Shown: positions 21,095-62,117, counted from the stretch's first letter. The stretch is DNA of 64,000 nt from a bacterium (GCA_021781955.1 JAJXVV010000003.1:27933-91932), one strand, 5' to 3'. Program-made: numbers and translations. Notes: generated by a model not told the origin, from the sequence alone.

Positions 21095-21099
21095 CTTCT

Positions 21100-23829: not shown

Positions 23830-23830
23830 A

Positions 23831-33781: not shown

Positions 33782-35119
33782 TTGGGGTGTATGGACACCA
33801 TTACGAGGGCACCCCTGGGCGGTATTAGCAGGCAGGCCGTACAAGCGCCCGTAAGGATCAAATACTGCCTGTATGCAAGAAAGAGCACCGAGAGTGAGGA
33901 GCGGCAGGTGCTTTCGATAGATAGCCAGATCAAGGAGATGCTCCAGCTGGCCGACCGAGAAGGGCTTGAGGTAGTGGAGATGAAGCGCGAGTCTCACTCG
34001 GCAAAGGAAACTGGCAAGCGGCCGGTATTCAATGAGATCGTCGACGAGCTCCGGGCTGGCAAGTATAACGGTATCCTCACCTGGGCACCGGATCGTATCA
34101 GCCGTAACGCCGGGGACCTTGGCAAGATTGTCGACCTCATGGATGCGGGAGCATTGATGGAGATTCGCACATACGGTCAGAGTTTCAAGAATAATCCGAA
34201 TGAGAAGTTCCTTCTCATGATTCTCGGCTCGCAAGCCAAACTCGAGAACGACAATCGCGGAGTGAACGTGAAGCGCGGGTTGCGGACGCGCTGCGAGATG
34301 GGTTTGCGGCCGGGCGTAGCACCGGTCGGCTACAACAACGAGAAGCATGCTGACAAGAAGTGCCACGCAATCGTTGATCCGGCGCGCGCGCCGATCGTGA
34401 AGCAGATGTTTGAGAAAGTCGCCAACGAGAAGTGGAGCGGCAGGCGCATACACCAGTGGCTCAAGTTCGAGCTCAACTTCAAGAGTCGGGGCAACAAGAA
34501 CATGACGCTTAGCAGCGTGTACGTAGTACTCCAGAACCACTTCTACTACGGCATGTTTGAGTACCCGGTAAACAGCGGGAATTGGTACGAGGGCAGACAC
34601 CAGCCGCTCATCACCAAAGAATTGTTCGACAAGACGCAAGAGCAACTCAAGCGCGACCGGATCGTGCGCTCCGACATTAAGGAATTTGCCTTCACCAAGC
34701 TTATGGTATGCGGCCTGTGTGGCTCCGGCATCTCCGCTGACGAGAAGTTTAAGAAGCTCAAGGATGGAACCTCTAACCGCTATGTGTACTACGGCTGCAC
34801 CCGAGCGCGGGACAAGAGCTGTAAGGGCGGCTACGTGCGCGAGGAGGCGCTCATCGAGCAGATGGTGAAAGTGATGGACAAGGTCGATTTCAACAAGATG
34901 GCCATGCGTGACAAGTTCGAGGCCGAGGTAGAGCGCATGCGGAAGTTCCAGCGTGCATTCACTGGCGGAGATGATGCCAAACCACGGAAGGACATAGATC
35001 TGTGCGACTACGCGAAGTACCTGCTCAAGGAAGGCAGCGTTACGGAAAAACGAGAGCTGCTACTTTGCATCAAAAGCAAGCTGGTGCTTACCAGAAGCGA
35101 ATTGAAACTCGAAAACTAG
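33782..35119 (+). CDS. large serine recombinase (resolvase/integrase family)
   Basis: N-terminal resolvase domain with nucleophile context YARKSTESEE and a conserved GILTWAPDRISRN block, then a recombinase domain and a zinc-ribbon (CGLCGS...YYGC...C). About 445 aa. Confidence 0.8.
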   Translation: MGCMDTITRAPLGGISRQAVQAPVRIKYCLYARKSTESEERQVLSIDSQIKEMLQLADREGLEVVEMKRESHSAKETGKRPVFNEIVDELRAGKYNGILTWAPDRISRNAGDLGKIVDLMDAGALMEIRTYGQSFKNNPNEKFLLMILGSQAKLENDNRGVNVKRGLRTRCEMGLRPGVAPVGYNNEKHADKKCHAIVDPARAPIVKQMFEKVANEKWSGRRIHQWLKFELNFKSRGNKNMTLSSVYVVLQNHFYYGMFEYPVNSGNWYEGRHQPLITKELFDKTQEQLKRDRIVRSDIKEFAFTKLMVCGLCGSGISADEKFKKLKDGTSNRYVYYGCTRARDKSCKGGYVREEALIEQMVKVMDKVDFNKMAMRDKFEAEVERMRKFQRAFTGGDDAKPRKDIDLCDYAKYLLKEGSVTEKRELLLCIKSKLVLTRSELKLEN

Positions 35120-36052
35120 TTATCTAGAATCGAGGTCTCGCGTCTCGCCATTTATGTAATCAGGAATATCTCGGTTCTTTTCACTGATGATCCTTTCCAT
35201 CTCATCAATTTGACGAATTGTGGGTTTATCGTCGTGACGCATAGCAATTTGACGTCCTTTTGCAAGATATCGTTTTGCTGCTCGGAATCGATATGCAGTC
35301 TTCAGATCATTGGCTAAGTTATGGTATGCGATCGCGGCAAGAGGATCATTCAATTCCTCAAACAACGCTGCGGCAACAAGAAAGCTGTCGGTAAATTTCT
35401 TAACATGGGCATTTAATTTGCGGGCATCACCGTTTGAAAGCAGTAACAAATATTCAGGCAGAGGATAACGCATAAATTCGTATCTGCTCCAAAGTTTTGT
35501 TCGCAGACCACCGCGCATGCAAACGACCTTGTATTGTATATAACGAGAACTTTCAATGCTGCCTTTCGCCATTAAAACAAGTGCTTGAATTCTCTTATTT
35601 CCAGTTTGGTTTGCAAGTGAAATAGCATCGGCGAGCGAGCTATCAATCCCGGCTTCGAGTGTCTGCACTTCAGCAGATAATGAGTCAAACTCCTGTTTTT
35701 CAGCTTCGGTCGCAAACTCGACCCATCTTGGCGGGAGTTTTAGCATCGCCATTCGATGGCGACGCAGCACAACCTGATGCATTGACATATCTGCAAGGCG
35801 TCCCAAAAAATGAGCGCGAAGATCCTTTAAATTTAGTGCTGAGGTTATCTTTAACCCTTCTACGAGGAGAGCCAATATTTTCAGATTGTCTTCCACTGGA
35901 GATAGAACACCAATGGCTACATCGATAAATTGAAGGCGGGTGTGAGGATCTTTAATTTGAGGATCCAGCTTTAACAAGTTGGCACGCGCTTGAGTACGCT
36001 TGCCCTCCGACGCCAAAGTAAGCGCTTTTTTAATTTCATCTTTTTGTGACAT
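35120..36052 (-). CDS. hypothetical alpha-helical protein (third gene of HNH/DUF4238-like cassette)
   Basis: 310 aa. Lower GC than its surroundings. Its start overlaps the upstream gene end by 17 nt; its stop abuts the recombinase stop (convergent, 0-nt gap). Confidence 0.5.
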   Translation of the reverse strand: MSQKDEIKKALTLASEGKRTQARANLLKLDPQIKDPHTRLQFIDVAIGVLSPVEDNLKILALLVEGLKITSALNLKDLRAHFLGRLADMSMHQVVLRRHRMAMLKLPPRWVEFATEAEKQEFDSLSAEVQTLEAGIDSSLADAISLANQTGNKRIQALVLMAKGSIESSRYIQYKVVCMRGGLRTKLWSRYEFMRYPLPEYLLLLSNGDARKLNAHVKKFTDSFLVAAALFEELNDPLAAIAYHNLANDLKTAYRFRAAKRYLAKGRQIAMRHDDKPTIRQIDEMERIISEKNRDIPDYINGETRDLDSR

Positions 36053-36962
36053 GGCGATATTGGTACCACAATTTTAATTCATGCCAGCGCATCGAAGCTT
36101 GGTGTCGCAGTATTTTAAGAATAAAGAAAAAGTCCAGCGGATAGCGGCGGTACCAATGGCGACGAGCTCTTGAGCTGTTTGCTATAAAGTATTTATAAGA
36201 ATGCCCCACAGTCATACGGTTCGATTCCTCAACCTCAGTTTTATCCCTGAGTACATACCCCCGTAACGGGCTTCGGCTCATGCAAAGTAATATCTCTGGA
36301 GAAAGTGGAAGATACACCTCGACTCGTTCTTGCCCAAGGTCAGGACCGTAAGCACGCTGCCATTGGAGTTCAGGATTGAATACCTGACAAGGGTCGTCAG
36401 AGGTGATGTATTTTGCGCCCCCATCCGAACAGAGGAAGGCGATGTTCATATCCATGAGCATCATTGCCACATCAGGCAGGAGCTGAACGAAATTCAGCTT
36501 ATGGCCATTTTCCATTTCTTGCTTTAGGCCTTGGCGTTCTTCTGGAGTAACGTCGGGGCTCATTTGTTCCATCAACTGATCGTGAAAGCGCTGCATGTTA
36601 TCCCTGAAGCGTGGCGTACGTTGAAGCATCGCTGCAACGAATACACGTAACGTTATGCGTTCGTCTTCAGTGAGTGGTAATCGCTGACTGATCTTATCTT
36701 TGAAAAGAGCTGCATATTTTCCTTCAAGGGTCGCTAGCGTTTCTTCGATGGAATAGTTTTTCTCGCCAGACTTCAGCTTAAGCGTGTATAGATCCTTTTC
36801 AACGAAAACGTTCGTTATCGAACTTTTACGGCCCTTCTTCTCGCCTTTATTAAAAGTCCAGAGATAGGAGGTCTTTCTAAAAAGGAAGTCCGAAGCGGCC
36901 CACTCTCGTAGGTAGCATTGCGGAACGTAATGTTGTCTGGTTGGACCTTTTGCCACGACCAA
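36036..36962 (-). CDS. DUF4238-like protein (hypothetical)
   Basis: The N-terminus TRQHYVPQCYLREW matches the HYVPQ-YL motif I recall as defining DUF4238. TTG/GTG start with AGGGG about 7 nt upstream. AT-richer than the host background. Confidence 0.5.
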   Translation of the reverse strand: MVVAKGPTRQHYVPQCYLREWAASDFLFRKTSYLWTFNKGEKKGRKSSITNVFVEKDLYTLKLKSGEKNYSIEETLATLEGKYAALFKDKISQRLPLTEDERITLRVFVAAMLQRTPRFRDNMQRFHDQLMEQMSPDVTPEERQGLKQEMENGHKLNFVQLLPDVAMMLMDMNIAFLCSDGGAKYITSDDPCQVFNPELQWQRAYGPDLGQERVEVYLPLSPEILLCMSRSPLRGYVLRDKTEVEESNRMTVGHSYKYFIANSSRARRHWYRRYPLDFFFILKILRHQASMRWHELKLWYQYRHVTKR

Positions 36963-36990
36963 ACGATACCCCTACTTTGTCTTTTCCGCA

Positions 36991-37767
36991 CTAAGGAGCG
37001 AAAGGGTCTAGGGCATCATGATTTGGAGATACGTTCCTTTCGGAAATTCCCAGTGCTGCGCCCTGCGGGACAAGACCCGATGGAAGAACATAGAAACCTG
37101 CACAACCTCTCGCGTCTTGGTCGCGTACCTTACCCAAGTCTTTCCAATCGTAAACATCGAGCGCGAAGAAGCACATCCATGGACCGTTGTTATCCGCCTG
37201 ATTCCAAACACATTCATAGGTAAGATTACCTTTGTTACACTGGACTTTATCGAGATTGTTTTTCGCGCGATTGTCTTTTATAGCTTGAACGAATGCAGCG
37301 TGCTGAGGAAGGATCGGATCGATAACCGGCTTACCATGTACCATGCGCCCGCGAGGAAATGGGGTTACGAGTGCACAGTTATCTCGTATATCGAGCACCG
37401 GTTCTTTGTATAGAGCGGCATGAAAGCCGCTGATCCAGCGCCATACAGCTTCGTCAACATCCAAGTTCGTGAGGGCACCAAGTTGTGGATTTATGACCAG
37501 GCGGCGATGTTTCGGATCCGATGGTTTTTTGCCGTACCGAAGTGCGATAAGCTGGGCAATCTTTTCATCGGTTAAGGTGTGCGCACTGTTGCAAGCTTGG
37601 TGCGTCGGCAAAATCAAGGGATCTTTATGATCCGTTTGGAAGATAGAGTCGGGCGGAACATGATCGCGATTTTTGACATCTCCTGCCGCGAACATTTTCC
37701 CGCACAAATAGCAGAACGGAAGGTTCTGCACTGGGCGACGTTCAGTTTGCGTAATGAGCGAAATCAT
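36991..37767 (-). CDS. HNH-nuclease-domain protein (N-terminal HNH-like motif plus about 190-aa unknown C-terminal domain)
   Basis: C-x2-C ... NRDHVPP ... HQACNSAH follows the HNH pattern (Zn ligands plus catalytic His-Pro). Start at MISLITQ (cat at 37765-37767). The longer ORF-track version (to 38058) reads through tRNA-Ser and is an artefact. Confidence 0.5.
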   Translation of the reverse strand: MISLITQTERRPVQNLPFCYLCGKMFAAGDVKNRDHVPPDSIFQTDHKDPLILPTHQACNSAHTLTDEKIAQLIALRYGKKPSDPKHRRLVINPQLGALTNLDVDEAVWRWISGFHAALYKEPVLDIRDNCALVTPFPRGRMVHGKPVIDPILPQHAAFVQAIKDNRAKNNLDKVQCNKGNLTYECVWNQADNNGPWMCFFALDVYDWKDLGKVRDQDARGCAGFYVLPSGLVPQGAALGISERNVSPNHDALDPFAP

Positions 37768-37811
37768 ATTGAGTCGGACTATTTTACGACGAAAACGCCC
37801 CGACGTGGGAC

Positions 37812-37841
37812 GGTCGCGAAACACGGTCTCACGTTCCTGCG
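37812..37841. repeat. direct repeat copy B (abuts/overlaps by 2 nt the 3' end of tRNA-Ser)
   Basis: See copy A at 17241-17270. Confidence 0.6.
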
Positions 37842-37926
37842 GAGAGGGAGGGATTCGAACCCTCGATACCGTTTCCAGTATGCCGCATTTCGAGTGCGGT
37901 GCCTTCGACCACTCAGCCACCTCTCC
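37840..37926 (-). tRNA. tRNA-Ser (anticodon CGA), long variable arm, no encoded CCA
   Basis: Reverse complement folds as GGAGAGG / D-arm / CCGCA-CTCGAAA-TGCGG / 18-nt variable arm / GAGGG-TTCGAAT-CCCTC / CCTCTCC plus G. Confidence 0.85.
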
Positions 37927-38063
37927 CAGTACCACCCCGAAAGGGGTGGTCCTCCCGCAAAACGCGGGGAAAATGACCTGGCCACCATCAAAATAGCACA
38001 CTTTCGAGCCGTGAAAAAATGCGTTACACTGCAGACGATTCGCGCATGCTGCGAACAAAAGAC

Positions 38064-39496: not shown

Positions 39497-39979
39497 ATGA
39501 AACGCATCATCGCTTCTATCGTTTTCATTATTACCTTTGCCGTCTACGCGGGATACCAACATCTCGTTAGCGCCTCGCCGACGGCACTCGCCGCTACGGG
39601 TGCCGCGACCGCTTTTGCTGCTGGCGCTGCCGCTTCAACGGCAAGCGCATCTGGATCGTCCGCGCCACCTTCGAGCGCTTCCGCATCAAACGGCCAATAC
39701 AAGGACGGCGCGTACACGGGCGACGCGGTCAGCGCGTACTACGGAACCGTTCAGGTACAAGCGGTAATAAAGAACGGCCGGCTCGCAAACGTCAATTTCC
39801 TGCAATACCCGAGCGATCGCAGCACGTCGCAATTCATCAACAGCCAAGCGATGCAGGGATTGGCGCAAGAGGCCGTCAACGCGCAGAGCGCCAATGTCGA
39901 CGGCGTCTCCGGGGCAACCGACACGACGATGGCGTTCCGTCAGTCGCTTTCGACCGCGCTTTCTGCGGCAGCGGCATAA
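39497..39979 (+). CDS. FMN-binding domain protein (secreted/anchored, flavinylation substrate)
   Basis: Signal anchor, Ala/Ser-rich linker, C-terminal FMN_bind-like domain with DGVSGATDTT (S-G-A-T flavinylation motif). Confidence 0.6.
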   Translation: MKRIIASIVFIITFAVYAGYQHLVSASPTALAATGAATAFAAGAAASTASASGSSAPPSSASASNGQYKDGAYTGDAVSAYYGTVQVQAVIKNGRLANVNFLQYPSDRSTSQFINSQAMQGLAQEAVNAQSANVDGVSGATDTTMAFRQSLSTALSAAAA

Positions 39980-39992
39980 CCTTGCACCTACC

Positions 39993-40853
39993 ATGCGGCA
40001 AACGCGCGACATCATGGGCATGCCGGTCATCGTCGAGATAGTCGGCGGCGATGAGGCCGCGCTCGAGGCGGTGTTCGCCTACTTCCGCGGGATCGATGAG
40101 CAGTTCAGCCCGTACAAAAAAGAAAGCGAGGTCTCGCGCCTCAGCGACGGCCGCCTTGCTAAGAGCGCCGCTTCGCGCGAGATGCGTGAGGTGCTTTTGC
40201 TCGCCGAACAAACCAAGCGCGAGACGAACGGCTATTTCGATATTTACACGCCGAGCGGTTCGTTCGACCCTTCCGGCCTCGTGAAAGGTTGGGCGATCCA
40301 AAAAGCCGCACAGCTTTTGCATGACAGGGGGCATCATAATTTCTGGGTCGAAGCGGGCGGCGACATCCAAACCTCCGGCCGCAACGCTGAAGGCGGCGAG
40401 TGGAGCGCCGGCATCCGCAATCCGTTCAATTCGTCCGAGATCGTGAAGGTCGTCTATCCGCGTGGCGCAGGCATCGCGACATCCGGCACCTACGTCCGCG
40501 GCAGCCACATCTACGATCCGCACCTGGGAGCTCCGGTGCGTTCCGAGCTCGTGAGCCTTACCGTTATCGGGAAAAACGTCTACGAGGCCGACCGCTTCGC
40601 CACGGCGGCTTTCGCCATGGGGCGTGACGGCATGTACTTCATCGAGCAGCACCCGGAACTCGAAGGCTACGCCATTGACGTACAGTGCCGCGCCACGCTC
40701 ACGAGCGGTTTTGCCGGATACACAATCGCTGCAAAGCCGTCCGGCGCGAAAGTTCTTGCAGAGGAACTGCCCGAGCGAAGCGAGTTTTCCGACGCAGGAA
40801 CCTTCGTGCCGGACGGCTCTCGGATATCATTACCGACGTATGCCACTTCGTAA
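39993..40853 (+). CDS. apbE: FAD:protein FMN transferase (ApbE family)
   Basis: ApbE family blocks (MGMPVIVEI, GYFDIY, GLVKGWAIQKAA, FWVEAGGDI, ATSGTYVRG). The C-terminal 30 aa are encoded by hairpin repeat copy 2. Confidence 0.7.
   Translation: MRQTRDIMGMPVIVEIVGGDEAALEAVFAYFRGIDEQFSPYKKESEVSRLSDGRLAKSAASREMREVLLLAEQTKRETNGYFDIYTPSGSFDPSGLVKGWAIQKAAQLLHDRGHHNFWVEAGGDIQTSGRNAEGGEWSAGIRNPFNSSEIVKVVYPRGAGIATSGTYVRGSHIYDPHLGAPVRSELVSLTVIGKNVYEADRFATAAFAMGRDGMYFIEQHPELEGYAIDVQCRATLTSGFAGYTIAAKPSGAKVLAEELPERSEFSDAGTFVPDGSRISLPTYATS
40736..40817. repeat. hairpin repeat element copy 2 (24-bp imperfect inverted arms, conserved 34-nt loop)
   Basis: Arms are gccgtccggcgcgaaagttcttgc and gcaggaaccttcgtgccggacggc (21/24 complementary). 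The loop agaggaactgcccgagcgaagcgagttttccgac is 30/34 identical to copy 1. Lies inside the apbE 3' end and just upstream of the next gene's start. Confidence 0.6.
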
Positions 40854-41568
40854 AACGATCCTCTCGATAGCGATGCTCGCGATATTCTCGACGTACGCGT
40901 TCTACGAGCACGCGCACAGCGACAGCGGAAATCTCGCAGCGCTCATCATGAGCGACCTCACGGGCCGCGAGCAAAACGGCATAGCTGCCGCTGACTCGCA
41001 CACCACTCCGTCGCAACAGACTGCAACGACCCCTGCACCGGCTGCGAGCGCTACCGCGCAACAACAGTACGCGCAATACCTCGCGCAGATCAATGCGCAA
41101 GCTGCGCGCCGCGGAGATGAAAGCTCATCTGAGGGCGAAGGTGAGGGCGGTGAGGGGCGACGTCTTGCGACCACGCAGCCAGCACCCGCCCCCGCACAGA
41201 CGCAAGCAGCAACCCCTGCGCAATCCGCCCAAACGCAACCAGCTCAGACCTCTGCTCCAGCGCAGCCGCAACAGCCGCAGGGACAGTACAAGGATGGCAC
41301 GTACACCGGACCGAGCGTGTTCGTCTACTACGGCAACGTGCAGGTGCAGGCCATCATCCAGGGCGGCAAGATAGCCGACGTCAAGTTCCTCCAATACCCG
41401 AGCGATCGCAGCACGTCGCAGTACATTAATAGCCAGGCCATGCCGATGCTGACCCAGGAGGCGATCGCTGCGCAGAGCGCCAATGTGAGCGGCGTCTCCG
41501 GCGCATCCGAGACGAGCAGCGGCTTCGTGCAGTCGCTCGGTCCAGCGCTCGCGCAAGCGCACGCATAA
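40840..41568 (+). CDS. FMN-binding domain protein, paralog 2 (Gln/Ala/Pro-rich linker)
   Basis: Signal anchor, long low-complexity linker, C-terminal domain about 70% identical to the 39497 protein, with NVSGVSGASETS (S-G-A-S motif). Start at MPLRKTIL (atg 40840). Confidence 0.6.
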   Translation: MPLRKTILSIAMLAIFSTYAFYEHAHSDSGNLAALIMSDLTGREQNGIAAADSHTTPSQQTATTPAPAASATAQQQYAQYLAQINAQAARRGDESSSEGEGEGGEGRRLATTQPAPAPAQTQAATPAQSAQTQPAQTSAPAQPQQPQGQYKDGTYTGPSVFVYYGNVQVQAIIQGGKIADVKFLQYPSDRSTSQYINSQAMPMLTQEAIAAQSANVSGVSGASETSSGFVQSLGPALAQAHA

Positions 41569-41582
41569 CAACGCAAGATACT

Positions 41583-43103
41583 ATGCCGAGATTCATGGAT
41601 GAATTTTTGAACAAGGTGACCATGTACCGCCTGTTGGTCTATTACCTCGGCGGACTCCTCCTCATCTCTGCCAGTTTCTCGGCTATCGGCATGCTTCCGT
41701 ACGATCCCGTCAATGTTCTCGCGAGCGCAGGCTTCCTCATCGCGGTGTGCTGGCTTTCCAACATCATCTTCGCGCGTTTCTGGAGCGTGCCGCCCAATGC
41801 CGAATCTTCGCTCATCACGGCACTCATCCTCTCGCTCATCATCACGCCAACCTGGCCGGACGCGTCATTCTTCTTCCTTCTGTGGGCAGGACTCCTCGCC
41901 ATGGGGTCGAAGTATTTGCTGTCGGTACGCGGCAAACACGTGTTCAATCCTGCCGCGTTCGGCGTCGCCATCACGGCGCTCGCGCTCAAGGACTCGGCCA
42001 CCTGGTGGGTCGCTGGCAATCTGCCGCTCATGCTCTTCATTCTCGCGGGCGGCATCTTGGTCGTGCGCAAGATCCACCGCACCGACCTCGTGATCCCGTT
42101 CTTCGCAGCAGGCATCATAAGCTCGCTCATGTTCATACCGCTCACGCCGCAAGACGTCATCTCGGCGCTCACCGCGACGCTTTTGCACACGACGCTCTTC
42201 TTCTTTGGCTTCGTGATGCTCACCGAGCCTCTGACCACGCCGCCGCGACGCGCGGGCCGCATCGCGTACGGTGCGCTCGTCGGCATACTCTTCGCGCCCT
42301 GGGTGCATGTGGGATCGCTCTACTTCACGCCTGAACTCGCGCTCCTTGCGGGCAATGTCTTCTCGTTCCTCATCAGCCCCAAGTACAAAGCGGTGCTCCA
42401 GCTCTCACAGGTCCGCAAGCTCGCCAACGACACGTACGAGTTCATTTTCTCGGGCCGCGTACCGCACTTCCAGCCCGGACAATTTGCGGAATGGACGCTC
42501 GACGCCGACACGTCAGACTCGCGCGGCAACCGCCGCTGGTTCACCATCGCCTCCTCGCCCACCGAGAACGACGTTCGGCTCGGCATCAAGTTCTATGCGG
42601 ACCCGAGCACCTACAAAACGTTCCTCGCTGATTTCCGCAACGGCCGCAAAATACTCACCGGGAGCATCGCGGGAGATTTCACGATGCCGAAGAATCCTAA
42701 GCGCAAGCTCGCCTTCATCGCCGGCGGTATCGGCGTCACCCCTTTCCGCAGCATGGTGAAGTATCTGCACGATCGCAACGAGCGGCGCGATGCGGTGCTT
42801 CTCTACTCGAACCGCTCGGAAGCGGAGATCGCCTATCGTGACATATTCGACGCTGCCGAGCGCGCGGGCATCGGTTTTCGCGCTCATTACACGCTCACCG
42901 ACAAGAGCGTCGCGCCCACCTGGCAAGGCGAGCGCGGATTCGTCGATGCCAACATGATCACCCGCACGATGCCGGATTACAAAGAGCGGACATTCTACAT
43001 CTCCGGACCGCCGTCGATGGTGGGCACCTTCAAGCATCTCCTGCACGAAATGGGCGTCCCGCGCCGCCGGATCAAGACCGACTACTTCCCGGGATTCGCT
43101 TGA
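41583..43103 (+). CDS. membrane-bound FAD/NAD(P)-binding oxidoreductase (polytopic N-terminal domain fused to FNR-like C-terminal domain)
   Basis: About 240-aa multi-TM N-terminal domain (FNPAAFG). The C-terminal domain has an RxFT..S FAD-binding motif (RRWFTIASSP) and a GGIGVTPF NAD(P)-binding motif. Confidence 0.6.
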   Translation: MPRFMDEFLNKVTMYRLLVYYLGGLLLISASFSAIGMLPYDPVNVLASAGFLIAVCWLSNIIFARFWSVPPNAESSLITALILSLIITPTWPDASFFFLLWAGLLAMGSKYLLSVRGKHVFNPAAFGVAITALALKDSATWWVAGNLPLMLFILAGGILVVRKIHRTDLVIPFFAAGIISSLMFIPLTPQDVISALTATLLHTTLFFFGFVMLTEPLTTPPRRAGRIAYGALVGILFAPWVHVGSLYFTPELALLAGNVFSFLISPKYKAVLQLSQVRKLANDTYEFIFSGRVPHFQPGQFAEWTLDADTSDSRGNRRWFTIASSPTENDVRLGIKFYADPSTYKTFLADFRNGRKILTGSIAGDFTMPKNPKRKLAFIAGGIGVTPFRSMVKYLHDRNERRDAVLLYSNRSEAEIAYRDIFDAAERAGIGFRAHYTLTDKSVAPTWQGERGFVDANMITRTMPDYKERTFYISGPPSMVGTFKHLLHEMGVPRRRIKTDYFPGFA

Positions 43104-53501: not shown

Positions 53502-54173
53502 ATGGAAGCTCTTTTGTTCTCTGTCTCAGGACAGAGATTAACGAACAAGACCGAATTGTACCACCGGCTGAAAGAAGAACTTTCGAGGAGGTTCCCCGAA
53601 ATACCGTTCATGTTCCCTGGGAACCCGTTCGATCGTCTTCCCTTCCCGCTCACCTGGGAACGGGATCGCGGCGCGGACGCGCCGACGACGAGGCTGCTCG
53701 AGTGCTGGACGCGCCTCGATCGATTCTGTTCGAGGAATCTATGCTCCTTATTGCGCACCAAAAGCGTTATATTCGTGCATGGGTTCGGCCTCGATGCGCT
53801 TCTGCATGCAACTGCATGCGTCGATTGCGAGACGGCGAACGACGAGGCATTCAGGCTCCACAACGGGCTCGTCCGGCTTCGGCTGCAGGAGCAGAACATT
53901 GAAGCGCCGGAATACTTCATCACCCGAGCCGATGTGCGAACGCTTGACGCTCGCATCGTAAAGAGATACCCGGCGCTCACGGACATGCCGCAAGCGGCAC
54001 GGACGCGCTTCATCCGGTACGAAGAAGGAACGATCAACACGTATTTTCGCCGAATCAAGCACCAGAAGGAACCGCATTTCATCGATGCGGGCGAGACTGT
54101 CGAAAACATGGTCGAGCAGGTCGTTGCGGTCGTTATGCGACGGCTTCAAGAAAGGAAATTGCTCGCGGCGTAA
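53502..54173 (+). CDS. hypothetical protein
   Basis: About 224 aa upstream of the Ehr-like cluster, no motif recognised. Start at MEALLF (ORF track 53457). Confidence 0.4.
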   Translation: MEALLFSVSGQRLTNKTELYHRLKEELSRRFPEIPFMFPGNPFDRLPFPLTWERDRGADAPTTRLLECWTRLDRFCSRNLCSLLRTKSVIFVHGFGLDALLHATACVDCETANDEAFRLHNGLVRLRLQEQNIEAPEYFITRADVRTLDARIVKRYPALTDMPQAARTRFIRYEEGTINTYFRRIKHQKEPHFIDAGETVENMVEQVVAVVMRRLQERKLLAA

Positions 54174-54327
54174 CGTTGCCGATCGATGAGCCCGCGCTAT
54201 GTCGCGGGCTCTTTATTTGTCCGCCGACGCGGTTGCGCGTTCGTGCTCGTGGGTGTACAGTCTCGCACATCGGCCGAGCGCTCTCGCCACGGGTGACGCA
54301 TCGGTCTCTTTGTTTTATCGTGTCGCT

Positions 54328-54858
54328 ATGTATAGACTGCTGAAAAAAATCGCTTCGACCCCGCAGGTGACCATGCCGAGGAGCACTTTTGCCGATGCGG
54401 AATTCGAGACGCTCGGCGAGCGGCTCAGAGAGAGGATATTCTCATCCCTGAAAGGCTCGCTCGCGATACGCCAAGTCGCGGCCGGATCATCGAACGCCGA
54501 GGAATGGGAATTGACCGCGCTCGGCAACGCCTATTACGACATCGAGCGCTTCGGGATCAAGTTCGTCGCGTCCCCGCGCCACGCCGACGCGCTCCTCGTG
54601 AGCGGGCCGGTCTCGCGCAACATGGCAGAGGCGCTGCGCCGCACGTACGAGGCGACCCCCGCTCCAAAGATCGTCGTCGCGGTCGGCGACGGTGCGATCG
54701 ACGGCGGCATCTTCAAGGGCTCCTACGCGATAGCCGGCGGCGTCAAAGATGTCATTCCGGTCGATATCGAGATCCCGGGCGATCCGCCGACGCCGCAAGC
54801 CATCATCGCGGCTCTGCTGCAAGTCGTGGAGCGCCTCGGCACAAAACGCACGCCGTAA
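54328..54858 (+). CDS. NuoB/HycG-like small subunit, degenerate (all four [4Fe-4S] Cys ligands replaced)
   Basis: Strong colinear similarity to HycG/NuoB (ERFGIKFVASPRHADALLVSGPV, IPVDIEIPG.PPTP). At the positions where I recall HycG/NuoB having Cys-containing motifs (CxxCxxC, GACxxSGG, PGCPP), this protein reads VAAGSSNAEE, GDGAIDGG and PGDPP. Confidence 0.75.
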   Translation: MYRLLKKIASTPQVTMPRSTFADAEFETLGERLRERIFSSLKGSLAIRQVAAGSSNAEEWELTALGNAYYDIERFGIKFVASPRHADALLVSGPVSRNMAEALRRTYEATPAPKIVVAVGDGAIDGGIFKGSYAIAGGVKDVIPVDIEIPGDPPTPQAIIAALLQVVERLGTKRTP

Positions 54859-54859
54859 T

Positions 54860-56902
54860 ATGAGTATCCTTCCGCAGTACGGCATAACGCTTGCACTGGC
54901 GCTCTATGCAGCGGGCGCGCTCTCCTCGCTCGTTCTCGGCGCACGGAAGACGGAAGGCGCGGCCCTGATAGCATCGCACGCGTTCGCGGCCCTCGCCGCG
55001 CTCGCGGCGTTCGTTTCGGCGTGCTCGATCGTCGTCTCGGGCGCCGCAGCGCTCTTCGACGCGGGCAGCATCGGGCTCATGGCGCATGTGCTCACGATTC
55101 GTATCGATCCGCTTTCCGCGCTTTTCCTCGCCGTCATTTCAACGGTCGTATTCGCGGCATCGATCTACGGCATCGCCTACCAGAGGCAATTCCTCGGCGT
55201 GTACCGCTCATCTGGGTTCGGCTTCTTCTACAACGTGTTCCTCGCGAGCATGTCGCTCGTCGTCATGGCCGACAACGCGATCCTCTTCCTGCTTGCCTGG
55301 GAACTGATGGCCGTGTGCTCCTACGCGCTCGTCGTGTTCGAACGTCACGAGTCGCATGCCGTTGCCGCAGGCGCTCTTTACCTCCTGATTTCGCAGCTCG
55401 GCGCAGCGTGCTTGTTGGCCGCATTCGTCATACTCTACGGCATAGTCGGTTCGTGGGATTTCGAGGTGCTGCGCGCTCATACGACACAGCTCTCGGCCCT
55501 CGCGCAAAACGGCGTCCTGCTGCTTGCGCTCGTCGGTTTCGCCTCGAAAGCCGGCGTCATCCCGCTCCACATCTGGCTGCCGGAGGCGCATCCCGCTGCG
55601 CCCTCGCACGTGTCGGCAATCATGTCCGGCGTGATGATCAAGACCGCGCTTTTCATGATCATCCGTTTTTTCATCGAATTCTTTCCCGCGAGCGCATCGT
55701 GGGGGCTGGTCATCCTCGTCCTCGGCGGCATCTCGAGCCTGCTCGGAGTCCTGTACGCCCTCTCGGAGCATGACATTAAACGCCTCCTCGCTTTCCACAG
55801 CGTCGAGAACGTGGGCATTATCCTGCTCGGCATCGGCGCTTCGATCTGCTTCTTCTCATACGGCCTGCCCGCACTCGGCTACCTCGCGCTCGCAGCGGCG
55901 CTTTACCACACCGTCAACCACGCGCTCTTTAAGTCGCTTCTGTTCCTTTCCGCCGGCTCCGTGGTGCACTCGACCGGCACGCGCAACATGGAAGAGTACG
56001 GCGGCCTCATCCGCACGATGCCGTGGACCGCTCTTTTCTTCCTCGTCGGCGCGATCGCCATTTCCGGCCTGCCTCCATTCAACGGTTTCGTGAGCGAATG
56101 GCTCACCTTCCAGAGCCTGTTCGCTGGCATCAAAGCGCTCCCCGCGCTCGGGAAAGCGGTCTTTCTATTCGGCGCCGCCTCGCTCGCCTTCACCGGAGGG
56201 CTCGCTGCCGCGTGTTTCGTGAAGGCCTTCGGCGTGACATTCCTCGCGCGCGCGCGCAGCAGCCACGCCTCTCATGCGCACGAGACACCGGCACTGATGA
56301 TACTTCCCATGGGCCTGCTTGCGCTCCTCACGTTCCTGCTCGGCGTAGGCGCCTCCTCGTTCGCGCCCATACTCTCCACGATCGCGCTCTCGCTGCGCGG
56401 CGGCTCAGCGGGAGCGCCGCACGCGAACCCGCTGCAAGCGATCACCGTCGGCTCATCCGCAACGCTCTCAATGGCATGGATTGCCGCAGCGCTCTTGGCA
56501 GCCATCGCGCTCACGTATTTCTACACGCTATTCGCATCAAAGGGCACGCGACGCACCGTCTCTCGCACATGGGATTGCGGATATCCGCTCTCGCCTCGCA
56601 TGGAGATCACGGCGACGGGATTCTCGCGTTCCATCATCGTCATATTCCGCGGACTGCTGCGTCCGAGCATCCAGCGAAGCGCCGAGTATCACGACGCGGC
56701 GATGCGCTACTTCGCCAAGTCGCGCAGCGTGTACTTGCACATGCCAAATCTCTATCGCACGTACCTGTATGACCCCGCGGGGCTATTGATCGAGAAGGGC
56801 GCGATGCGCGCCCGCCGCATCCAAACCGGCAACCTCAACCTGTACCTGCTCTACATCCTCCTCACGATCGCCGCTCTCCTGGTGTGGACCATTCATTCAT
56901 AA
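54860..56902 (+). CDS. NuoL/HyfB/MrpA-like antiporter-type membrane subunit
   Basis: 680-aa polytopic protein with complex-I antiporter-subunit blocks (WLPEAHPAAPSHVSAIMSG, multiple TM). Confidence 0.8.
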   Translation: MSILPQYGITLALALYAAGALSSLVLGARKTEGAALIASHAFAALAALAAFVSACSIVVSGAAALFDAGSIGLMAHVLTIRIDPLSALFLAVISTVVFAASIYGIAYQRQFLGVYRSSGFGFFYNVFLASMSLVVMADNAILFLLAWELMAVCSYALVVFERHESHAVAAGALYLLISQLGAACLLAAFVILYGIVGSWDFEVLRAHTTQLSALAQNGVLLLALVGFASKAGVIPLHIWLPEAHPAAPSHVSAIMSGVMIKTALFMIIRFFIEFFPASASWGLVILVLGGISSLLGVLYALSEHDIKRLLAFHSVENVGIILLGIGASICFFSYGLPALGYLALAAALYHTVNHALFKSLLFLSAGSVVHSTGTRNMEEYGGLIRTMPWTALFFLVGAIAISGLPPFNGFVSEWLTFQSLFAGIKALPALGKAVFLFGAASLAFTGGLAAACFVKAFGVTFLARARSSHASHAHETPALMILPMGLLALLTFLLGVGASSFAPILSTIALSLRGGSAGAPHANPLQAITVGSSATLSMAWIAAALLAAIALTYFYTLFASKGTRRTVSRTWDCGYPLSPRMEITATGFSRSIIVIFRGLLRPSIQRSAEYHDAAMRYFAKSRSVYLHMPNLYRTYLYDPAGLLIEKGAMRARRIQTGNLNLYLLYILLTIAALLVWTIHS

Positions 56903-56907
56903 CGCGT

Positions 56908-57834
56908 ATGTACGTACTTTCGTTCGTCCTCAATGCAATCGTGGTCTCGGCCCTCTCACCGCTTGCGGTCGGGCTCATTCGCACACTTAAGGCTCGGATA
57001 CAGGTGCGCGTCGGGGCAGACCCGTTCCAGCCGTATCGCGACCTCTCGAAGCTCTTTCGCAAGGATGAGGTCATATCTGAGGACGCGTCATGGATATTCA
57101 CTGCCTCACCCTACATCGTGTTCGGCACGACGCTCGCGCTCGCAGCTGGCGTGCCGATCCTCTCCTCCGCGCTCACGTTCGCGCCGCTCAGCGACATGCT
57201 CGTGTTCGTGTACATGCTCGCTGTCGGCACCTTCTTTCTCGCGCTTTCCGGTATCGACGCCGGCAGCGGCTTCGGGGGCTTCGGCGCGAGCCGCGAAATG
57301 ACGATCGCGGCGCTGACGGAAGGCGGCCTCATACTCTCGCTTGCGGCGCTCGCACTCCTGACCGGCAGCAGCATGTTCCTGACGATGGCGAGCGTGACGA
57401 TGACGCTTCCGCTCGCGAAAGTGCTGCCGCTCATTATCGCCGCTGCCGCTTTCTTCATTGCTCTCCTTGCCGAGAACGCGCGTTACCCCGTCGACAACCC
57501 GGCGACCCATCTCGAGCTCACCATGGTACATGAGGCGATGCTTCTGGAACATTCCGGCAAAGGGCTCGCGCTCATGGAATGGTCGGCGTCGAACAAGCTG
57601 CTCATATTCACCGCGATATTCGTGAACGTGTTCCTGCCGTGGGGTTCCCCGACGAGCCCTGGCCTCGCCGCCCTGTTCGTCGGCGCGATATGGTTCGCGC
57701 TCAAAACGCTTGCCGTCCTCGCGGGCATCGCATGCATCGAATCGGGCATGGCGAAGTTCCGGATATTCCGCGTTCCCGACCTCCTTTTCACGTCGTTCGT
57801 CCTGAGTGTGATCGCCATCGTCCTTACCGTATGA
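56908..57834 (+). CDS. NuoH/HycD-like membrane subunit
   Basis: Colinear with HycD/NuoH (RIQVRVGADPFQPYRDLSKLF, ARYPVDNPATHLEL, EW). Confidence 0.8.
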   Translation: MYVLSFVLNAIVVSALSPLAVGLIRTLKARIQVRVGADPFQPYRDLSKLFRKDEVISEDASWIFTASPYIVFGTTLALAAGVPILSSALTFAPLSDMLVFVYMLAVGTFFLALSGIDAGSGFGGFGASREMTIAALTEGGLILSLAALALLTGSSMFLTMASVTMTLPLAKVLPLIIAAAAFFIALLAENARYPVDNPATHLELTMVHEAMLLEHSGKGLALMEWSASNKLLIFTAIFVNVFLPWGSPTSPGLAALFVGAIWFALKTLAVLAGIACIESGMAKFRIFRVPDLLFTSFVLSVIAIVLTV

Positions 57835-58481
57835 TATTCGGTCTCGACATACTCACGGTCTGCGCGAGCCTCGTCTTTTTGCTCGCGCTCCTGATGAACC
57901 TCGTTCGCAAGAATACGACCTTAATATCGCTCTACGTCATCCAATCGGTCGCCATCGCGGCAGCGCTCGCGGTCCTGGGCGGTACCGATGGCGAGACGGG
58001 ATTGGTGTACGCCGCGCTCCTGACGCTCGCGGTCAAAGGCGTCATAGCGCCGACCTTCCTCTATCGTCTCATTAGCAAATATTCCGGGCATTTTTCCGCA
58101 GCATCCTACCTCTCGATGCCGCCAACGCTCGTCGGCCTCGCCTGCATGACCGCATTCTCCTTCCTCCTGGCGCCGCACCTTCCCTTTGCCGGCGTGAGCG
58201 CGGTCCCGCTCCTGTTCGCTGGCATATTCAGCGCGCTATTCCTCATGATCAATCGACGCGGTGCGCTCTCAGCCGTGGTCGGGGTACTCGCGCTTGAGAA
58301 CGCGGCCGTGCTGCTCTCTTCGACCCTTGGAGCGGTACATACCTTCGCGCTCGAATTCACGATCGCGTTCGATATCGCGGTATGGGTCGCCATCGCCACG
58401 GCATTCCTTCACATGATGCACCGCCAGTTCGGTATCGTCGACACCGACACGCGCCTCATATCGCGCCTCACGGAAGAATAA
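57831..58481 (+). CDS. HyfE/NuoK-related small membrane subunit
   Basis: 216-aa 6-7 TM protein. ATGA overlap with the upstream stop, and it sits where hyfE lies in hyf clusters. Confidence 0.55.
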   Translation: MIFGLDILTVCASLVFLLALLMNLVRKNTTLISLYVIQSVAIAAALAVLGGTDGETGLVYAALLTLAVKGVIAPTFLYRLISKYSGHFSAASYLSMPPTLVGLACMTAFSFLLAPHLPFAGVSAVPLLFAGIFSALFLMINRRGALSAVVGVLALENAAVLLSSTLGAVHTFALEFTIAFDIAVWVAIATAFLHMMHRQFGIVDTDTRLISRLTEE

Positions 58482-58484
58482 CGT

Positions 58485-59939
58485 ATGATCATCTACCTTC
58501 TCCTCATCGCACCGCTCGTTGCCGCCGCCCTCACCGCCCTCATGCCGCGCGGGAAGAAGTGGCTCATCGAGTATGGCGCGCTCGGCGCGGCCTGCGTTGA
58601 ACTACTCATGGCCTGCATGATCGTCGCGGGCGTACTTGCGCACGGTGTCGTCAGAGCCTCTGCAGTGTTCGAGGCCGACGCGCTCGGCGCGTTCGTCGTG
58701 CTCTTCGTTTCCGTCGTCGGGCTCGCGGCGGCGATGCACTCGATCGGCCACTTGCGCGAGGAGATGCGGAAGCAGATCGTCGGGTTCAGCCGCGTCCGAC
58801 AATACTTCGTGCTTTTTCATCTCTTTTTCTTCGCCATGCTCGCTGCGGCGGTGACCGCAAGCCCCGTCCTGATGTGGGCGGCGATCGAGGCCACGACGCT
58901 CGCCTCTGCGTTCCTCGTTACCTTCTACAACAAGTCCTCAGCGCTGGAGGCAGGCTGGAAATTCCTCATCATCAATTCAGTCGGACTGCTGCTCGGCTTC
59001 TTGGGGACCTTGCTATTCCTTTCGGCTGCGGGCAGCGCGGGCGCGTCCGGCGCGTTCGTCACGTGGCACACGCTGCTCGGACTCTCGCCAGCGCTTAATC
59101 CCCTGCTCGTCAAGATCGCGTTCGTGTTCATCCTCGTAGGGTTCGGCACCAAAACCGGGTTCGTACCGATGCACACCTGGCTTCCCGACGCGCACTCAAA
59201 AGCTCCCATCCCGATCTCCGCGCTCCTCTCGGGCGTTCTCCTCAATATCGCGCTCATCGGTATCCTGCGTTTCCGTGCGGTCGTTGATACCGTGGTCGAC
59301 CCCTCGTTCTCATCGCATCTCCTGATCGGCTTCGGCGTCCTGTCCCTCGTCGTGGCCTCGTTCATCATCTACGCGCAGAAGAATTACAAGCGTCTTCTCG
59401 CCTACTCATCGATCGAGCACATGGGCATCATCGCGATCGGTTTCGGCATCGGAGGCCCAGGCACGGTGTTCGCGATCTTCCATCTTCTCTACCACGCGCT
59501 TCTCAAGCCGATCCTGTTCTTCTCGGCGGGCAACTTCTTTCTCAAGTATAGCTCTACGAAGATCGCGCGAGTGCGCGGCGCCCTGACAGCAATTCCGGTA
59601 TCCGCCACGCTCTTCTTCGTCGCATTGTTGGCCGTGGCGGGGACCCCTCCCTCAGGCATGTTCTTCACGGAACTCGGTATCCTGAGCGCGGGTGCGCGGA
59701 CCTACCCCTATCTCATACCCTTCGTGCTCGCAGCGCTTCTCATCAGCTTTGCCGGATTCATCAAGCAAGGGAGCGCCATGTTGTTCGGCGAGGCGCCCGC
59801 CGAAATCGCGAAAGGCGAGGCGAATAGCTGGACCATCGCCTCGATCGTATTCCTCTTCCTCGTATTCGCGACGATCAGTATCATGGTCCCATTCCCACTT
59901 TATGAGCTCGTGCAACACGCCGCGTCACTCGTCAGTTGA
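58485..59939 (+). CDS. NuoN/NuoM/HyfF-like antiporter-type membrane subunit
   Basis: 484-aa polytopic protein with antiporter blocks (GFGTKTGFVPMHTWLPDAHSKAPIPISALLSG). Confidence 0.8.
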   Translation: MIIYLLLIAPLVAAALTALMPRGKKWLIEYGALGAACVELLMACMIVAGVLAHGVVRASAVFEADALGAFVVLFVSVVGLAAAMHSIGHLREEMRKQIVGFSRVRQYFVLFHLFFFAMLAAAVTASPVLMWAAIEATTLASAFLVTFYNKSSALEAGWKFLIINSVGLLLGFLGTLLFLSAAGSAGASGAFVTWHTLLGLSPALNPLLVKIAFVFILVGFGTKTGFVPMHTWLPDAHSKAPIPISALLSGVLLNIALIGILRFRAVVDTVVDPSFSSHLLIGFGVLSLVVASFIIYAQKNYKRLLAYSSIEHMGIIAIGFGIGGPGTVFAIFHLLYHALLKPILFFSAGNFFLKYSSTKIARVRGALTAIPVSATLFFVALLAVAGTPPSGMFFTELGILSAGARTYPYLIPFVLAALLISFAGFIKQGSAMLFGEAPAEIAKGEANSWTIASIVFLFLVFATISIMVPFPLYELVQHAASLVS

Positions 59940-59940
59940 T

Positions 59941-61494
59941 ATGAACGACCAACACATCATCCAACGCTACTTGTCCGATCGCATCCCGGAGCGCAGCGGC
60001 AACACCCTCGTGGTGCGCGCGGAAGCGCACGAACTCACCGACCTGTTCCGAACGCTCATTGACGCGCTTCCGTTCATCTCGATGTTCGCGACCGACGAGT
60101 ACGGCTCGTTCAGTATTCGGTACGTGTTCGGCGTTCCGCACGAAAACGCGTTCATCGTCGTGCTGCTCCCGCTTTCCGGCACCGCGTTCCCGTCGCTCGC
60201 CCGCGAATTCCCCTGCACCGCCCTCTACGAGCGGCTTTGCATGACCATGTTCGGTCTCACGGCCGAAGGACACCCGGATCCGCGCACCGTCACCCTGCAC
60301 GAAGAGAACTGGCCGCGCGACACGTACCCGATGCGTACATCGTTCGAATGGAACACCCGCGTACCCATGCGGGGATCAGGCACGTACCGCTTCCATGAGG
60401 TCAGCGGTGAGGGCATCTACGAGATACCGGTCGGCCCGGTGCATGCTGGCATCATCGAACCGGGCAATTTCCGCTTCAGCGTCGCGGGCGAGGAGATCAT
60501 CGCGCTCGAAGCGCGTTTGGGCTGGGTGCACAAAGGCACCGAAAAGCTCTTCGAGCATCTCGCCATGAGCCAACACCCGGCACTCGCGGAGCATGTTTCC
60601 GGCGACAGCTCTTTCGCGCATTCGCTCGCATACTGTCAAGCGATCGAAGTCTTAACGGGCACCGCGGTACCGGAGCGCGCACGCTACCTGCGCACCGTAT
60701 TCGGCGAGCTGGAGCGGCTGACCATGCACCTATTCGATATCGGGAACATCTGCGGCAACGGGACCGGATTTACGTTCATGGCGACGCAGGGGTTCCGCAT
60801 GACCGAAGAACTGCGTCGCCTTTCGCAGCGGCTCGCGGGGAACCGTTTCTGGCGATCGATCAACCTGCCCGGCGGTGTCACCAAAGACATCTCCGCCGAC
60901 GATGCGCGACAGCTCACGACGTTCCTCGGCGCACTCAAGGAGGATTTCGCCGACATGATGAACGTCGCCGACCAGAGCGCTTCCCTCGCGAATCGCTTGC
61001 AGGGCACCGGCACCCTCTCGCGCGTCGTCGCGCAAGAGAACCACGCAACAGGCGTAGCCGCGCGCTGCGTGGGGATCGAGAAGGACGTCCGGGTCGAATA
61101 TCCCTACGCCGCGTACGATTCGCTCAAGCCGGACGTCGTAACGGAACAGGCGGGCGACGTCGACGCACGCGTCAAGGTGCGCGTGCGCGAGGTCTATGAA
61201 TCGATCCGGCTTATCGTCTTGGCGCTTGAGCGCCTGCCACGAGGCCCTCTCGCCACCACAATCCGCACGCTGCCGAGCAAGGGCATGGCGGTCGGTCTCA
61301 CGGAAAGCTGGCGCGGAGAGATCGCCTACGCGGTCATCACCGACGACCAAGGGGCGATCGCGCGGGTCGCTGTCCGAGACCCGTCATTCGTGCATTGGCA
61401 GCTTTTCCCGCATATGGTAGGACGCGACATGGTGCCTGATTTCCCTCTCATAAACAAAAGTCTCAACCTTTCGTATACTGGTAACGACCTGTAG
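59941..61494 (+). CDS. HycE-like large subunit (NuoC-NuoD fusion), degenerate (NiFe-ligating Cys absent)
   Basis: NuoC-like N-terminal half then a NuoD/HycE-like half (IPVGPVHAGIIEPGNFRF, RLGWVHKGTEK, AYCQAIEVLTG, RTVFGELERL). The expected CxxC site reads VSGDSSFAH and the C-terminal CxxC site reads DFPLINKSLN. Confidence 0.8.
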   Translation: MNDQHIIQRYLSDRIPERSGNTLVVRAEAHELTDLFRTLIDALPFISMFATDEYGSFSIRYVFGVPHENAFIVVLLPLSGTAFPSLAREFPCTALYERLCMTMFGLTAEGHPDPRTVTLHEENWPRDTYPMRTSFEWNTRVPMRGSGTYRFHEVSGEGIYEIPVGPVHAGIIEPGNFRFSVAGEEIIALEARLGWVHKGTEKLFEHLAMSQHPALAEHVSGDSSFAHSLAYCQAIEVLTGTAVPERARYLRTVFGELERLTMHLFDIGNICGNGTGFTFMATQGFRMTEELRRLSQRLAGNRFWRSINLPGGVTKDISADDARQLTTFLGALKEDFADMMNVADQSASLANRLQGTGTLSRVVAQENHATGVAARCVGIEKDVRVEYPYAAYDSLKPDVVTEQAGDVDARVKVRVREVYESIRLIVLALERLPRGPLATTIRTLPSKGMAVGLTESWRGEIAYAVITDDQGAIARVAVRDPSFVHWQLFPHMVGRDMVPDFPLINKSLNLSYTGNDL

Positions 61495-61568: not shown

Positions 61569-62117
61569 ATGAAGCGGCAATCGATATTCGGGCTCGCCGT
61601 GCTCGTCTTCTTCATTTTCGGCGGCGTGTGGTATGCGTTTACGTACCCTGCGCAAATCACCGGCCTCCTAGCCGGCAACTCTTCAGGCGGCGCGCCAAGC
61701 GGCGCGAGCCAACCATCGCAGCCGACCGTGCAGTCCGGCGTGCCGCTGGTGAACGGCAATGGCCAGAACATCGGCGGCAATCTCACGCTTGGCATATACG
61801 ACGACCCGCGTCTCGGTGCCTATCTTACCGGCTACACCGGCAACGCGGTGTACACCTTCGCCCGCGATCAGGTCGGCACCTCCACCTGCTACGGCACGTG
61901 CGCGCAGCTATGGCCGCCATACACCGTTTCCGGCACGTTGCAGTTCAACCTTCAGCCCGGCGTGAACCAAACACTCGTCGGTACGATCACGCGTACGGAT
62001 AACACCGAGCAACTCACCTACCGCGGCCTCCCGCTCTACTTCTATGCACCCGACCAGAGCGCCTCCCAAGCAAAAGGCCAAGGCGTGGGCGGCCTGTGGT
62101 ACGTCGTGACTCCGTAG
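61569..62117 (+). CDS. secreted protein with tandem lipoprotein-15-like (COG4315-type) repeats
   Basis: Signal anchor. Repeats NAVYTFARDQ...TCYGTCAQLWPPY and LTYRGLPLYFYAPDQS...GQGVGGLWYVV. Confidence 0.5.
   Translation: MKRQSIFGLAVLVFFIFGGVWYAFTYPAQITGLLAGNSSGGAPSGASQPSQPTVQSGVPLVNGNGQNIGGNLTLGIYDDPRLGAYLTGYTGNAVYTFARDQVGTSTCYGTCAQLWPPYTVSGTLQFNLQPGVNQTLVGTITRTDNTEQLTYRGLPLYFYAPDQSASQAKGQGVGGLWYVVTP

Follow-up and report, generated by a model that had tools for sequence, protein, structure and literature searches.

The 64,000-nucleotide stretch of bacterial DNA analysed here (GCA_021781955.1 JAJXVV010000003.1:27933-91932; in the following referred to as the window) harbours at positions 54328-61494 a cluster of six genes, ehrS, ehrA, ehrB, ehrC, ehrD and ehrL, which code for a membrane complex of the Ehr class within the superfamily of complex I and membrane-bound hydrogenases. 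Ehr was named in Geobacter (GSU0739-0745) and designates hydrogenase-like complexes without NiFe ligands and without an assigned role (PMC7894505, PMC6349859, PMC10284858, PMC3569383). Judged from its deduced proteins, the complex described here has neither a recognisable redox-cofactor site nor an electron-input subunit: next to the NiFe ligands of the large subunit, the [4Fe-4S] ligands of the small subunit are missing as well. Since the closest named homologues belong to Candidatus Kaiserbacteria and other Parcubacteria, the organism is assigned to the Candidate Phyla Radiation (CPR)/Patescibacteria.

Organization of the gene cluster

All six genes are located on the plus strand and their reading frames are uninterrupted. 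The cluster is headed by ehrS (54328-54858; 176 amino acids), coding for a NuoB/HycG/MbhJ-like small subunit (PF01058, E 1.5e-26), followed by ehrA (54860-56902; 680 amino acids) for an antiporter-type protein resembling HyfB, HycC, NuoL and MrpA (NF005086, hydrogenase 4 subunit B, E 7e-193) and ehrB (56908-57834; 308 amino acids) for a HycD/NuoH-like protein (PF00146, E 3e-39). The product of ehrC (57831-58481; 216 amino acids) is a HyfE-like membrane subunit (NF008556, E 7e-6, below cut-off), that of ehrD (58485-59939; 484 amino acids) a second antiporter-type protein of the HyfF/NuoN/MrpD kind (NF005044, hydrogenase 4 subunit F, E 1.5e-125), and that of ehrL (59941-61494; 517 amino acids) a HycE-like large subunit representing a NuoC-NuoD fusion (PF00329 and PF00346). 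From ehrS to ehrL the genes are separated by +1, +5, -4, +3 and +1 nt. Coordinates were derived from gene calls on public contigs with identical DNA; these calls and Pfam and NCBIfam scans bear out the six co-directional genes and the subunit types proposed in a preliminary description of this DNA.

For ehrB an alternative GTG start exists at 56884. A start of ehrS at 54199 was rejected: it overlaps a terminator-like hairpin, and public gene calls use 54328. This hairpin (54188-54211, +) comprises a 9-bp stem, in which 8 pairs are GC, and a succeeding T-rich tail, and lies 3' of the preceding gene; its position before ehrS indicates that the cluster forms a transcription unit separate from that gene.

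Three independent assemblies (GCA_027428515.1 and two from ENA) carry the cluster with 100% identical DNA, and the large subunit is present on 16 contigs. Assembly errors, considered in the preliminary description as a possible source of the substitutions reported below, are excluded, because the same DNA occurs in three assemblies and the substitutions are common to 120 of 120 homologues.

Loss of cofactor ligands in the large and small subunits

Alignment of EhrL with HycE (7z0s_E, E 6e-68) pairs RVCGICGFAHS of HycE with HVSGDSSFAHS, and SLDPCYSCT with SLNLSYTGN, the NiFe cysteines being replaced by S220, S223, S511 and G514. The first motif (L1, SGDS) is encoded at 60598-60609 and the second (L2, NLSYTG) at 61465-61482; the protein terminates three residues further on, as it does across Ehr. 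Both SGDS and the absence of cysteines had been recognised correctly in the preliminary description, but its reading of DFPLINKS in place of DPCxxC fell about 8 residues too early, as DFPLINKS pairs with DAPLIIGS of HycE. The quinone ligands of complex I are likewise missing: alignment with 2fug_4 places Ile and Gly221 of EhrL at H38 and Y87 of Nqo4, respectively. A hydrogenase-type beta1-beta2 loop (HAGIIEPG) is present and invariant in the homologues.

Nearly all of the 120 best large-subunit homologues (47-69% identity) share ERxSGDSS and the C-terminal end PDFPLINKSFNLSY[ST]GNDL. R-x-S-G-D and NKSFNLSYSGNDL, the motifs that stand in place of the ligands, are found throughout the published Ehr class, the large subunits of Firmicutes and CPR included. 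The combination of R-x-S-G-D with PDFPLINKSFNLSY[SA]GNDL, common to loci of Nitrospira, Acidobacteria, Thaumarchaeota and Rokubacteria, is an empirical signature obtained in this analysis.

In EhrS, residue-wise alignments with MbhJ (6cfw_J) and HycG (7z0s_G) revealed GSSNAE in place of GSCNGC, GDG in place of GAC and PGDPP in place of PGCPP. The former ligand positions are thereby occupied by S55 (54490-54492), E58 (54499-54501), G122 (54691-54693) and D152 (54781-54783). G122 rather than the preceding Asp was taken as the third position, because cluster-containing relatives read GDC there in the family alignment. EhrS does not contain a single cysteine. The four ligand cysteines are absent from all 120 best small-subunit homologues (61-100% identity), 91 of which have no cysteine whatsoever; E58 and D152 are invariant among these 120, whereas Ser or Thr, rarely Asn, occurs at position 55 and Gly, Ala or Asp at position 122. 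No cysteine was thus detected at equivalent positions in either EhrL or EhrS, a check by alignment having been proposed in the preliminary description, and the claim made there that the N2-type ligands are lost from the small subunit holds; this loss is not a general trait of Ehr (see below). The AlphaFold2 (AF2) model of EhrS has a mean predicted local distance difference test (pLDDT) score of 72.7, with low confidence at residues 55-70, i.e. the former CxxC loop, and a Foldseek search with this predicted structure recovered the NuoB/MbhJ fold. No paper on the loss of Fe-S ligands in an Ehr small subunit was found in the literature searched, and a cofactor-free Ehr small subunit appears to be hitherto undescribed.

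Conservation of the membrane arm

EhrA matches HycC (7z0s_C, E 5e-72) and like HycC possesses Glu in transmembrane helix (TM) 5, Lys in TM7, TM8 and TM11, and Glu in TM12. EhrD has conserved Glu in TM5, Lys in TM7 and TM11, and Glu/Lys in TM12, but carries Asn instead of Lys in TM8, as in most Ehr. These charged residues of EhrA and EhrD are invariant both in canonical Ehr and in the clade with degenerate small subunits to which the present complex belongs. EhrB is nearest to HycD (7z0s_D, E 3e-44) and has kept the acidic residues of the TM5-6 loop. For EhrC, a search of the PDB with the single sequence gave no match; a profile of 23 orthologues, however, weakly matched MbhG (6cfw_G, E 0.0015) and MbsG. 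The C-terminal half of EhrC is accordingly weakly MrpC/NuoK/MbhG-like, and its invariant E156 falls at the membrane Glu of MbhG and MbsG. Most related loci that span the respective position carry an EhrC homologue in the same slot. Taken together, the EhrL loop, the EhrB loop, the Glu of EhrC and the Lys/Glu chains of the antiporter-type subunits constitute coupling hardware that is kept under strong purifying selection.

Distribution within the Ehr family

To place the cluster within its family, one genome per species was scanned, which returned 80 loci that were analysed with phmmer and MAFFT; the large-subunit tree was obtained by crude neighbour joining and carries no support values. EhrL groups with other Ehr large subunits in this tree, which together with the Ehr-wide replacement motifs and a gene set equal to that of Geobacter confirms the assignment to the Ehr class made in the preliminary description. 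All four cysteines are kept in 66 of the 79 small subunits scored at related loci, and every degenerate small subunit falls into one clade of the tree; loss of the [4Fe-4S] ligands is restricted to this single Ehr clade. Its members are mostly CPR (Kaiser-, Falkow-, Uhr-, Davies-, Moran- and Saccharibacteria), joined by a few metagenome-assembled genomes (MAGs) labelled Firestonebacteria, Bdellovibrionales, Endomicrobiales, Thermoleophilia and Fibrobacteria. At the four ligand positions, sub-variants of the type x-E-G-D without any Cys, x-E-G-D with a stray Cys at +2, and x-C-D-D were observed. The neighbouring clade (Rokubacteria, Chloroflexi), in which ehrS likewise comes first, retains all four cysteines (CCCC).

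Within the first 80 loci, the sole substitution fixed across the whole degenerate clade is that of PGCPP to PGDPP in EhrS (Cys to D152), and comparison with cluster-containing Ehr revealed no EhrL residue fixed in step with cluster loss. A locus added later (L085, Falkowbacteria) reads PGNPP; Asn at position 152 weakens the simple idea of D152 forming part of a new metal site. Whichever locus was compared, EhrS showed the highest conservation among the six subunits, with 53-83% identity vs 24-65% for the others, even where the relatives still possess the cluster. Relative subunit conservation was used since the ratio of nonsynonymous to synonymous substitutions (dN/dS) between close relatives yielded no substitution data, the contigs being 100% identical.

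Two gene orders occur in the family, S-A-B-C-D-L as in the present cluster and A-B-C-D-L-S as in Geobacter, Nitrospira and Acidobacteria. The six-gene order recurs in essentially every locus of the degenerate clade that covers the whole cluster. In two loci (L086, 3282-8994; L090, 1203-6847), both from assemblies with contig_N-style names, ehrA is broken into two or three pieces, probably due to frameshift errors in assembly rather than to pseudogene formation. Some further arrangements were encountered in the survey. Four loci of the same family and gene order (L024, L050, L065 and L069; Thermincola, Negativicutes, Myxococcales and Desulfotomaculum) have kept all NiFe cysteines (RICGxCS, ELCYxCxDR) and represent true hydrogenases nested among Ehr, as noted earlier for D. 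ruminis (PMC3569383). Complete Ehr clusters form tandem pairs in the Nitrospirota loci L043 (9887-19808) and L063 (3945-13922), and in a Fibrobacteria MAG (L009, 53-15706) a second Ehr-like cluster adjoins one of the degenerate clade.

Neighbouring genes and search for redox partners

All-against-all clustering of the flanks of 20 clade loci revealed no recurrent redox neighbour beside the cluster; it returned only antisense shadow open reading frames (ORFs), lineage-specific synteny (DnaG, RpoD) and ATP synthase. The genes atpG, atpD and atpC are located upstream on the same strand, directly adjacent in L085 (Falkowbacteria), L028 and L002 and with a gap of about 2 kb in L018 (Uhrbacteria), and in L008 ATP-synthase genes lie about 6 kb from the cluster. 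None of about 62 canonical Ehr loci has ATP-synthase genes beside it. As the ATP-synthase-linked loci belong to both major sub-clades, the linkage may be ancestral. In one further lineage (L086, L088, L089), a CPA-type Na+/H+ exchanger and a DedA/VTT protein are encoded directly upstream.

In the window itself, Pfam scans of the large ORFs detected no genes for hyp maturation proteins, HycF/NuoI or formate dehydrogenase, and no ORF of at least 50 amino acids contains a CxxCxxCxxxC motif. The lack of a HycF/NuoI-like gene, which the preliminary description had noted for the cluster, therefore extends to the window and to the surveyed clade loci, and agrees with the published subunit list of Geobacter.

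Comparison with known systems

Canonical Ehr, represented by EhrA-1/A-2/B/C/D/L/S of Geobacter sulfurreducens (GSU0739-0745), comprises the same six subunit types, carries the same large-subunit motifs and conserved antiporter residues, and likewise has no HycF/NuoI-type subunit in the Geobacter list. It differs in three respects: canonical EhrS keeps the four cysteines (GSCNxCE, G[AD]C and PGCPP) which are S, E, G and D here, ehrS is the last rather than the first gene in Geobacter, Nitrospira and Acidobacteria, and adjacency to ATP-synthase genes is seen only in the degenerate clade. A monophyletic CPR clade inside Ehr, with large subunits devoid of metal-binding cysteines, was reported by Jaffe et al. 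2020 (BMC Biol 18:69, PMC7304191) and judged there to be one that "likely cannot interact with H2". As far as the large subunit is concerned, this clade is the same as the one described here, and the Cys-less CPR large subunit is already published knowledge. For group-4-related proteins, the figure of that study shows no more than the large-subunit motifs L1 and L2, and the small-subunit analysis concerns group 3b; the study is silent on loss of the Fe-S ligands in the small subunit, on the other subunits and on the neighbour genes of CPR Ehr.

Formate hydrogenlyase of E. coli (Hyc, 7Z0S) and Hyf provide the top PDB and NCBIfam matches for all subunits (HycG, E 2e-26), and the hydrogenase-type beta1-beta2 loop of EhrL is shared with them. 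Compared to these and other group 4 [NiFe]-hydrogenases, the present complex lacks the NiFe ligands, the proximal cluster, HycF and HycB, and the window contains no gene for formate dehydrogenase, for Hyp proteins or for a HycF/EchF-like protein. With complex I, NDH-1, MBH and MBS it shares the NuoB/C/D/H and antiporter-like architecture with conserved coupling loops. MbhJ, HycG and two complex-I NuoB/PSST homologues, however, keep Cys at the ligand positions that they cover, whereas EhrS has none, and in comparison to complex I and NDH-1 the N2-type cluster ligands, the quinone ligands H38/Y87, the N-module and NuoI are all missing. To our knowledge, all characterised members of complex I, NDH-1, MBH and MBS retain the N2-type cluster.

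The likeness to Mrp antiporters (6Z16, 7QRU, 7D3U) resides in two antiporter-like subunits with Lys/Glu chains (TM8 of EhrD being Asn), a MrpC/NuoK-like element with a membrane Glu, as far as the weak match of EhrC goes, and the absence of redox cofactors. Mrp, however, does not possess NuoH-, NuoB-, NuoC- or NuoD-like subunits, and no counterparts of MrpB, MrpE, MrpF and MrpG were identified in the cluster; the present complex does not belong to the Mrp family.

Functional interpretation

Without NiFe site, Fe-S cluster, quinone ligands and electron-input subunit, no known redox-driven mechanism is available to the complex, and redox chemistry would be absent from it. Its intact and strongly conserved membrane arm and the ion-related neighbours of the cluster point to ion translocation. 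The non-hydrogenase, possibly non-redox ion-translocating role suggested in the preliminary description is in accord with all of these results. On these grounds the complex could be a redox-independent, Mrp-like cation/proton translocator functionally tied to ATP synthase, a proposal that we regard as evenly balanced between right and wrong. Such a translocator would shift cations or protons independently of redox reactions, as Mrp does, and would convert or balance an ion gradient made or used by F-type ATP synthase; the cofactor-free EhrS-EhrL cap would then cover the entry channel of EhrB as a lid with a structural, gating or ligand-sensing role. In its evolutionary formulation, the proposal describes a member of the complex-I/membrane-hydrogenase superfamily with a full Q-module-like cap and coupling elements and with zero redox cofactor, fixed in a mostly-CPR clade and ancestrally linked to the F-type ATP-synthase operon; this we advance tentatively, with confidence falling slightly short of even.

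Several observations weigh against a translocator of this kind. Of roughly 25 clade loci, only about 5 show adjacency to ATP-synthase genes, the window itself not being among them, and the evidence for the clade derives from the crude tree described above. A plain antiporter would need no cytoplasmic module of about 700 residues, yet precisely this module is best conserved. EhrL has no fixed difference from EhrL of cluster-containing Ehr, and its conserved pocket (SGDSS/NLSYSGNDL) may still perform some unassigned Ehr chemistry. Ser/Thr, Glu or one Cys, and Asp, which now occupy the former cluster site, could serve as metal ligands. Moreover, we know of no Ehr of any kind with a demonstrated function.

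Part of this evidence would be accommodated if the pocket of EhrL (S220, D222, S223, N509, S511, Y512, N515 and D516) bound or converted a substrate, ion or ligand and this event were coupled to ion translocation without an electron wire. Antiporter-like subunits with a non-redox partner exist in DabA with DabB. The pocket motifs are near-invariant across all Ehr, the degenerate clade included, and the beta1-beta2 loop and the EhrB TM5-6 loop, both of them coupling elements of complex I, are conserved. With a cap that evolves more slowly than the membrane subunits and a pocket that is the same as in cluster-containing Ehr, no residue having changed along with cluster loss, this explanation gains some weight. 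We nevertheless consider it rather unlikely: no candidate substrate is known, His and Cys as typical catalytic metal ligands are absent from the pocket, and no metabolic gene lies consistently beside the cluster in the 20 clade loci. The pocket of cluster-keeping Ehr, furthermore, presumably receives electrons, and the same chemistry is hard to picture once the cluster is gone.

The complex might also have remained a redox enzyme, either by holding a metal or cluster on non-Cys ligands (Ser/Thr55, Glu/Cys58, Asp152, D121, E59, E61) or by receiving electrons from a partner encoded elsewhere. The replacements are indeed O-donors that have been conserved, E58 and D152 without exception in the 120 nearest homologues, and a sister sub-lineage retains one Cys at ligand position 2 (x-C-D-D). 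Such a partner could lie beyond the 64 kb in view, and a flavin module of ApbE, FMN_bind and RnfD-FNR-like proteins is encoded within the window about 11 kb upstream. We still judge this improbable. Position 122 is Gly, the Falkowbacteria locus L085 has Asn at position 152, and AF2 confidence is low precisely at the former CxxC loop; a [4Fe-4S] cluster held without any Cys is not known to us. Electrons would find neither a NiFe site nor a quinone site to be passed on to, no redox neighbour recurs in the 20 loci, and CPR generally lack quinones and respiratory chains (PMC8080830, PMC10633639). That the cluster is a functionless, decaying relic of an Ehr or hydrogenase operon would fit the loss of every cofactor ligand and the reductive evolution of CPR genomes, but is highly improbable in view of six intact frames in an order shared by essentially every full-length clade locus, motifs kept in homologues at 47-83% identity, invariant antiporter residues, and EhrS being the slowest-evolving subunit.

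Other features of the window

The genes around the cluster have mainly housekeeping character and include those for ValRS, PrsW, HSP20, RpoD and DnaG. Immediately flanking are a gene for a 223-amino-acid protein without family match (53502-54173, +) and one for a secreted repeat lipoprotein of the Lipoprotein_15/SCO0930 type (61569-62117, +), neither of which recurs beside the cluster in other lineages.

Three adjacent genes on the plus strand (39894-43103) code for an ApbE flavin transferase (39894-40853), an FMN_bind-domain protein (40624-41568) and a 506-amino-acid fusion (41583-43103) of an RnfD/NqrB-like membrane domain (residues ~150-265) with an FNR/NqrF-like NAD(P)H-binding reductase domain (~270-502). 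They resemble a minimal Nqr/Rnf-like membrane module for flavin-dependent electron transfer, which may bear on CPR membrane energetics.

The stretch 33782-38058 contains a gene for a large serine recombinase (33782-35119), one for a DUF4238 protein and unannotated ORFs; with a GC content of 0.49-0.50 as compared to 0.58-0.62 on either side, it is probably an integrated mobile element. A second stretch of lower GC content (18000-24000; 0.51-0.54) harbours a fusion of a ParB_N domain with a DNA methylase (18727-20214) and several ORFs without family match. Genes for two tandem DUF347-repeat membrane proteins are located at 23044-24838 (-). An AcrB-type RND transporter (1031 amino acids), two HlyD-type adaptor proteins and an FtsX/MacB-like permease are encoded consecutively at 5200-13973 (-); such parts of tripartite pumps are surprising for a CPR bacterium, in which an outer membrane is presumed absent. 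An Nramp metal transporter is encoded at 3892-5196.

Conclusions

What is known of this complex is its Cys-less large subunit; what appears to be new is an Ehr without its last cofactor. Discussions of complex-I-type coupling usually take redox chemistry at the NuoB/NuoD interface as the driving force, and a natural, strongly conserved cofactor-free variant in which this interface is intact offers a test of a non-redox role for the cap and the coupling loops. If the proposed reading is true, the complex would be the first non-redox "Q-module", possibly an ion-gradient converter or a ligand- or ion-gated pump. CPR/Patescibacteria have kept F-type ATP synthase, but how they would generate or control a proton-motive force is not evident, which is a stated open problem (PMC8080830, PMC10633639). 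A conserved six-subunit module found repeatedly behind atpGDC or a Na+/H+ exchanger is a concrete, clonable candidate for CPR membrane energetics, and, if the reading is true, could be part of how CPR without respiratory chains manage their membrane potential.

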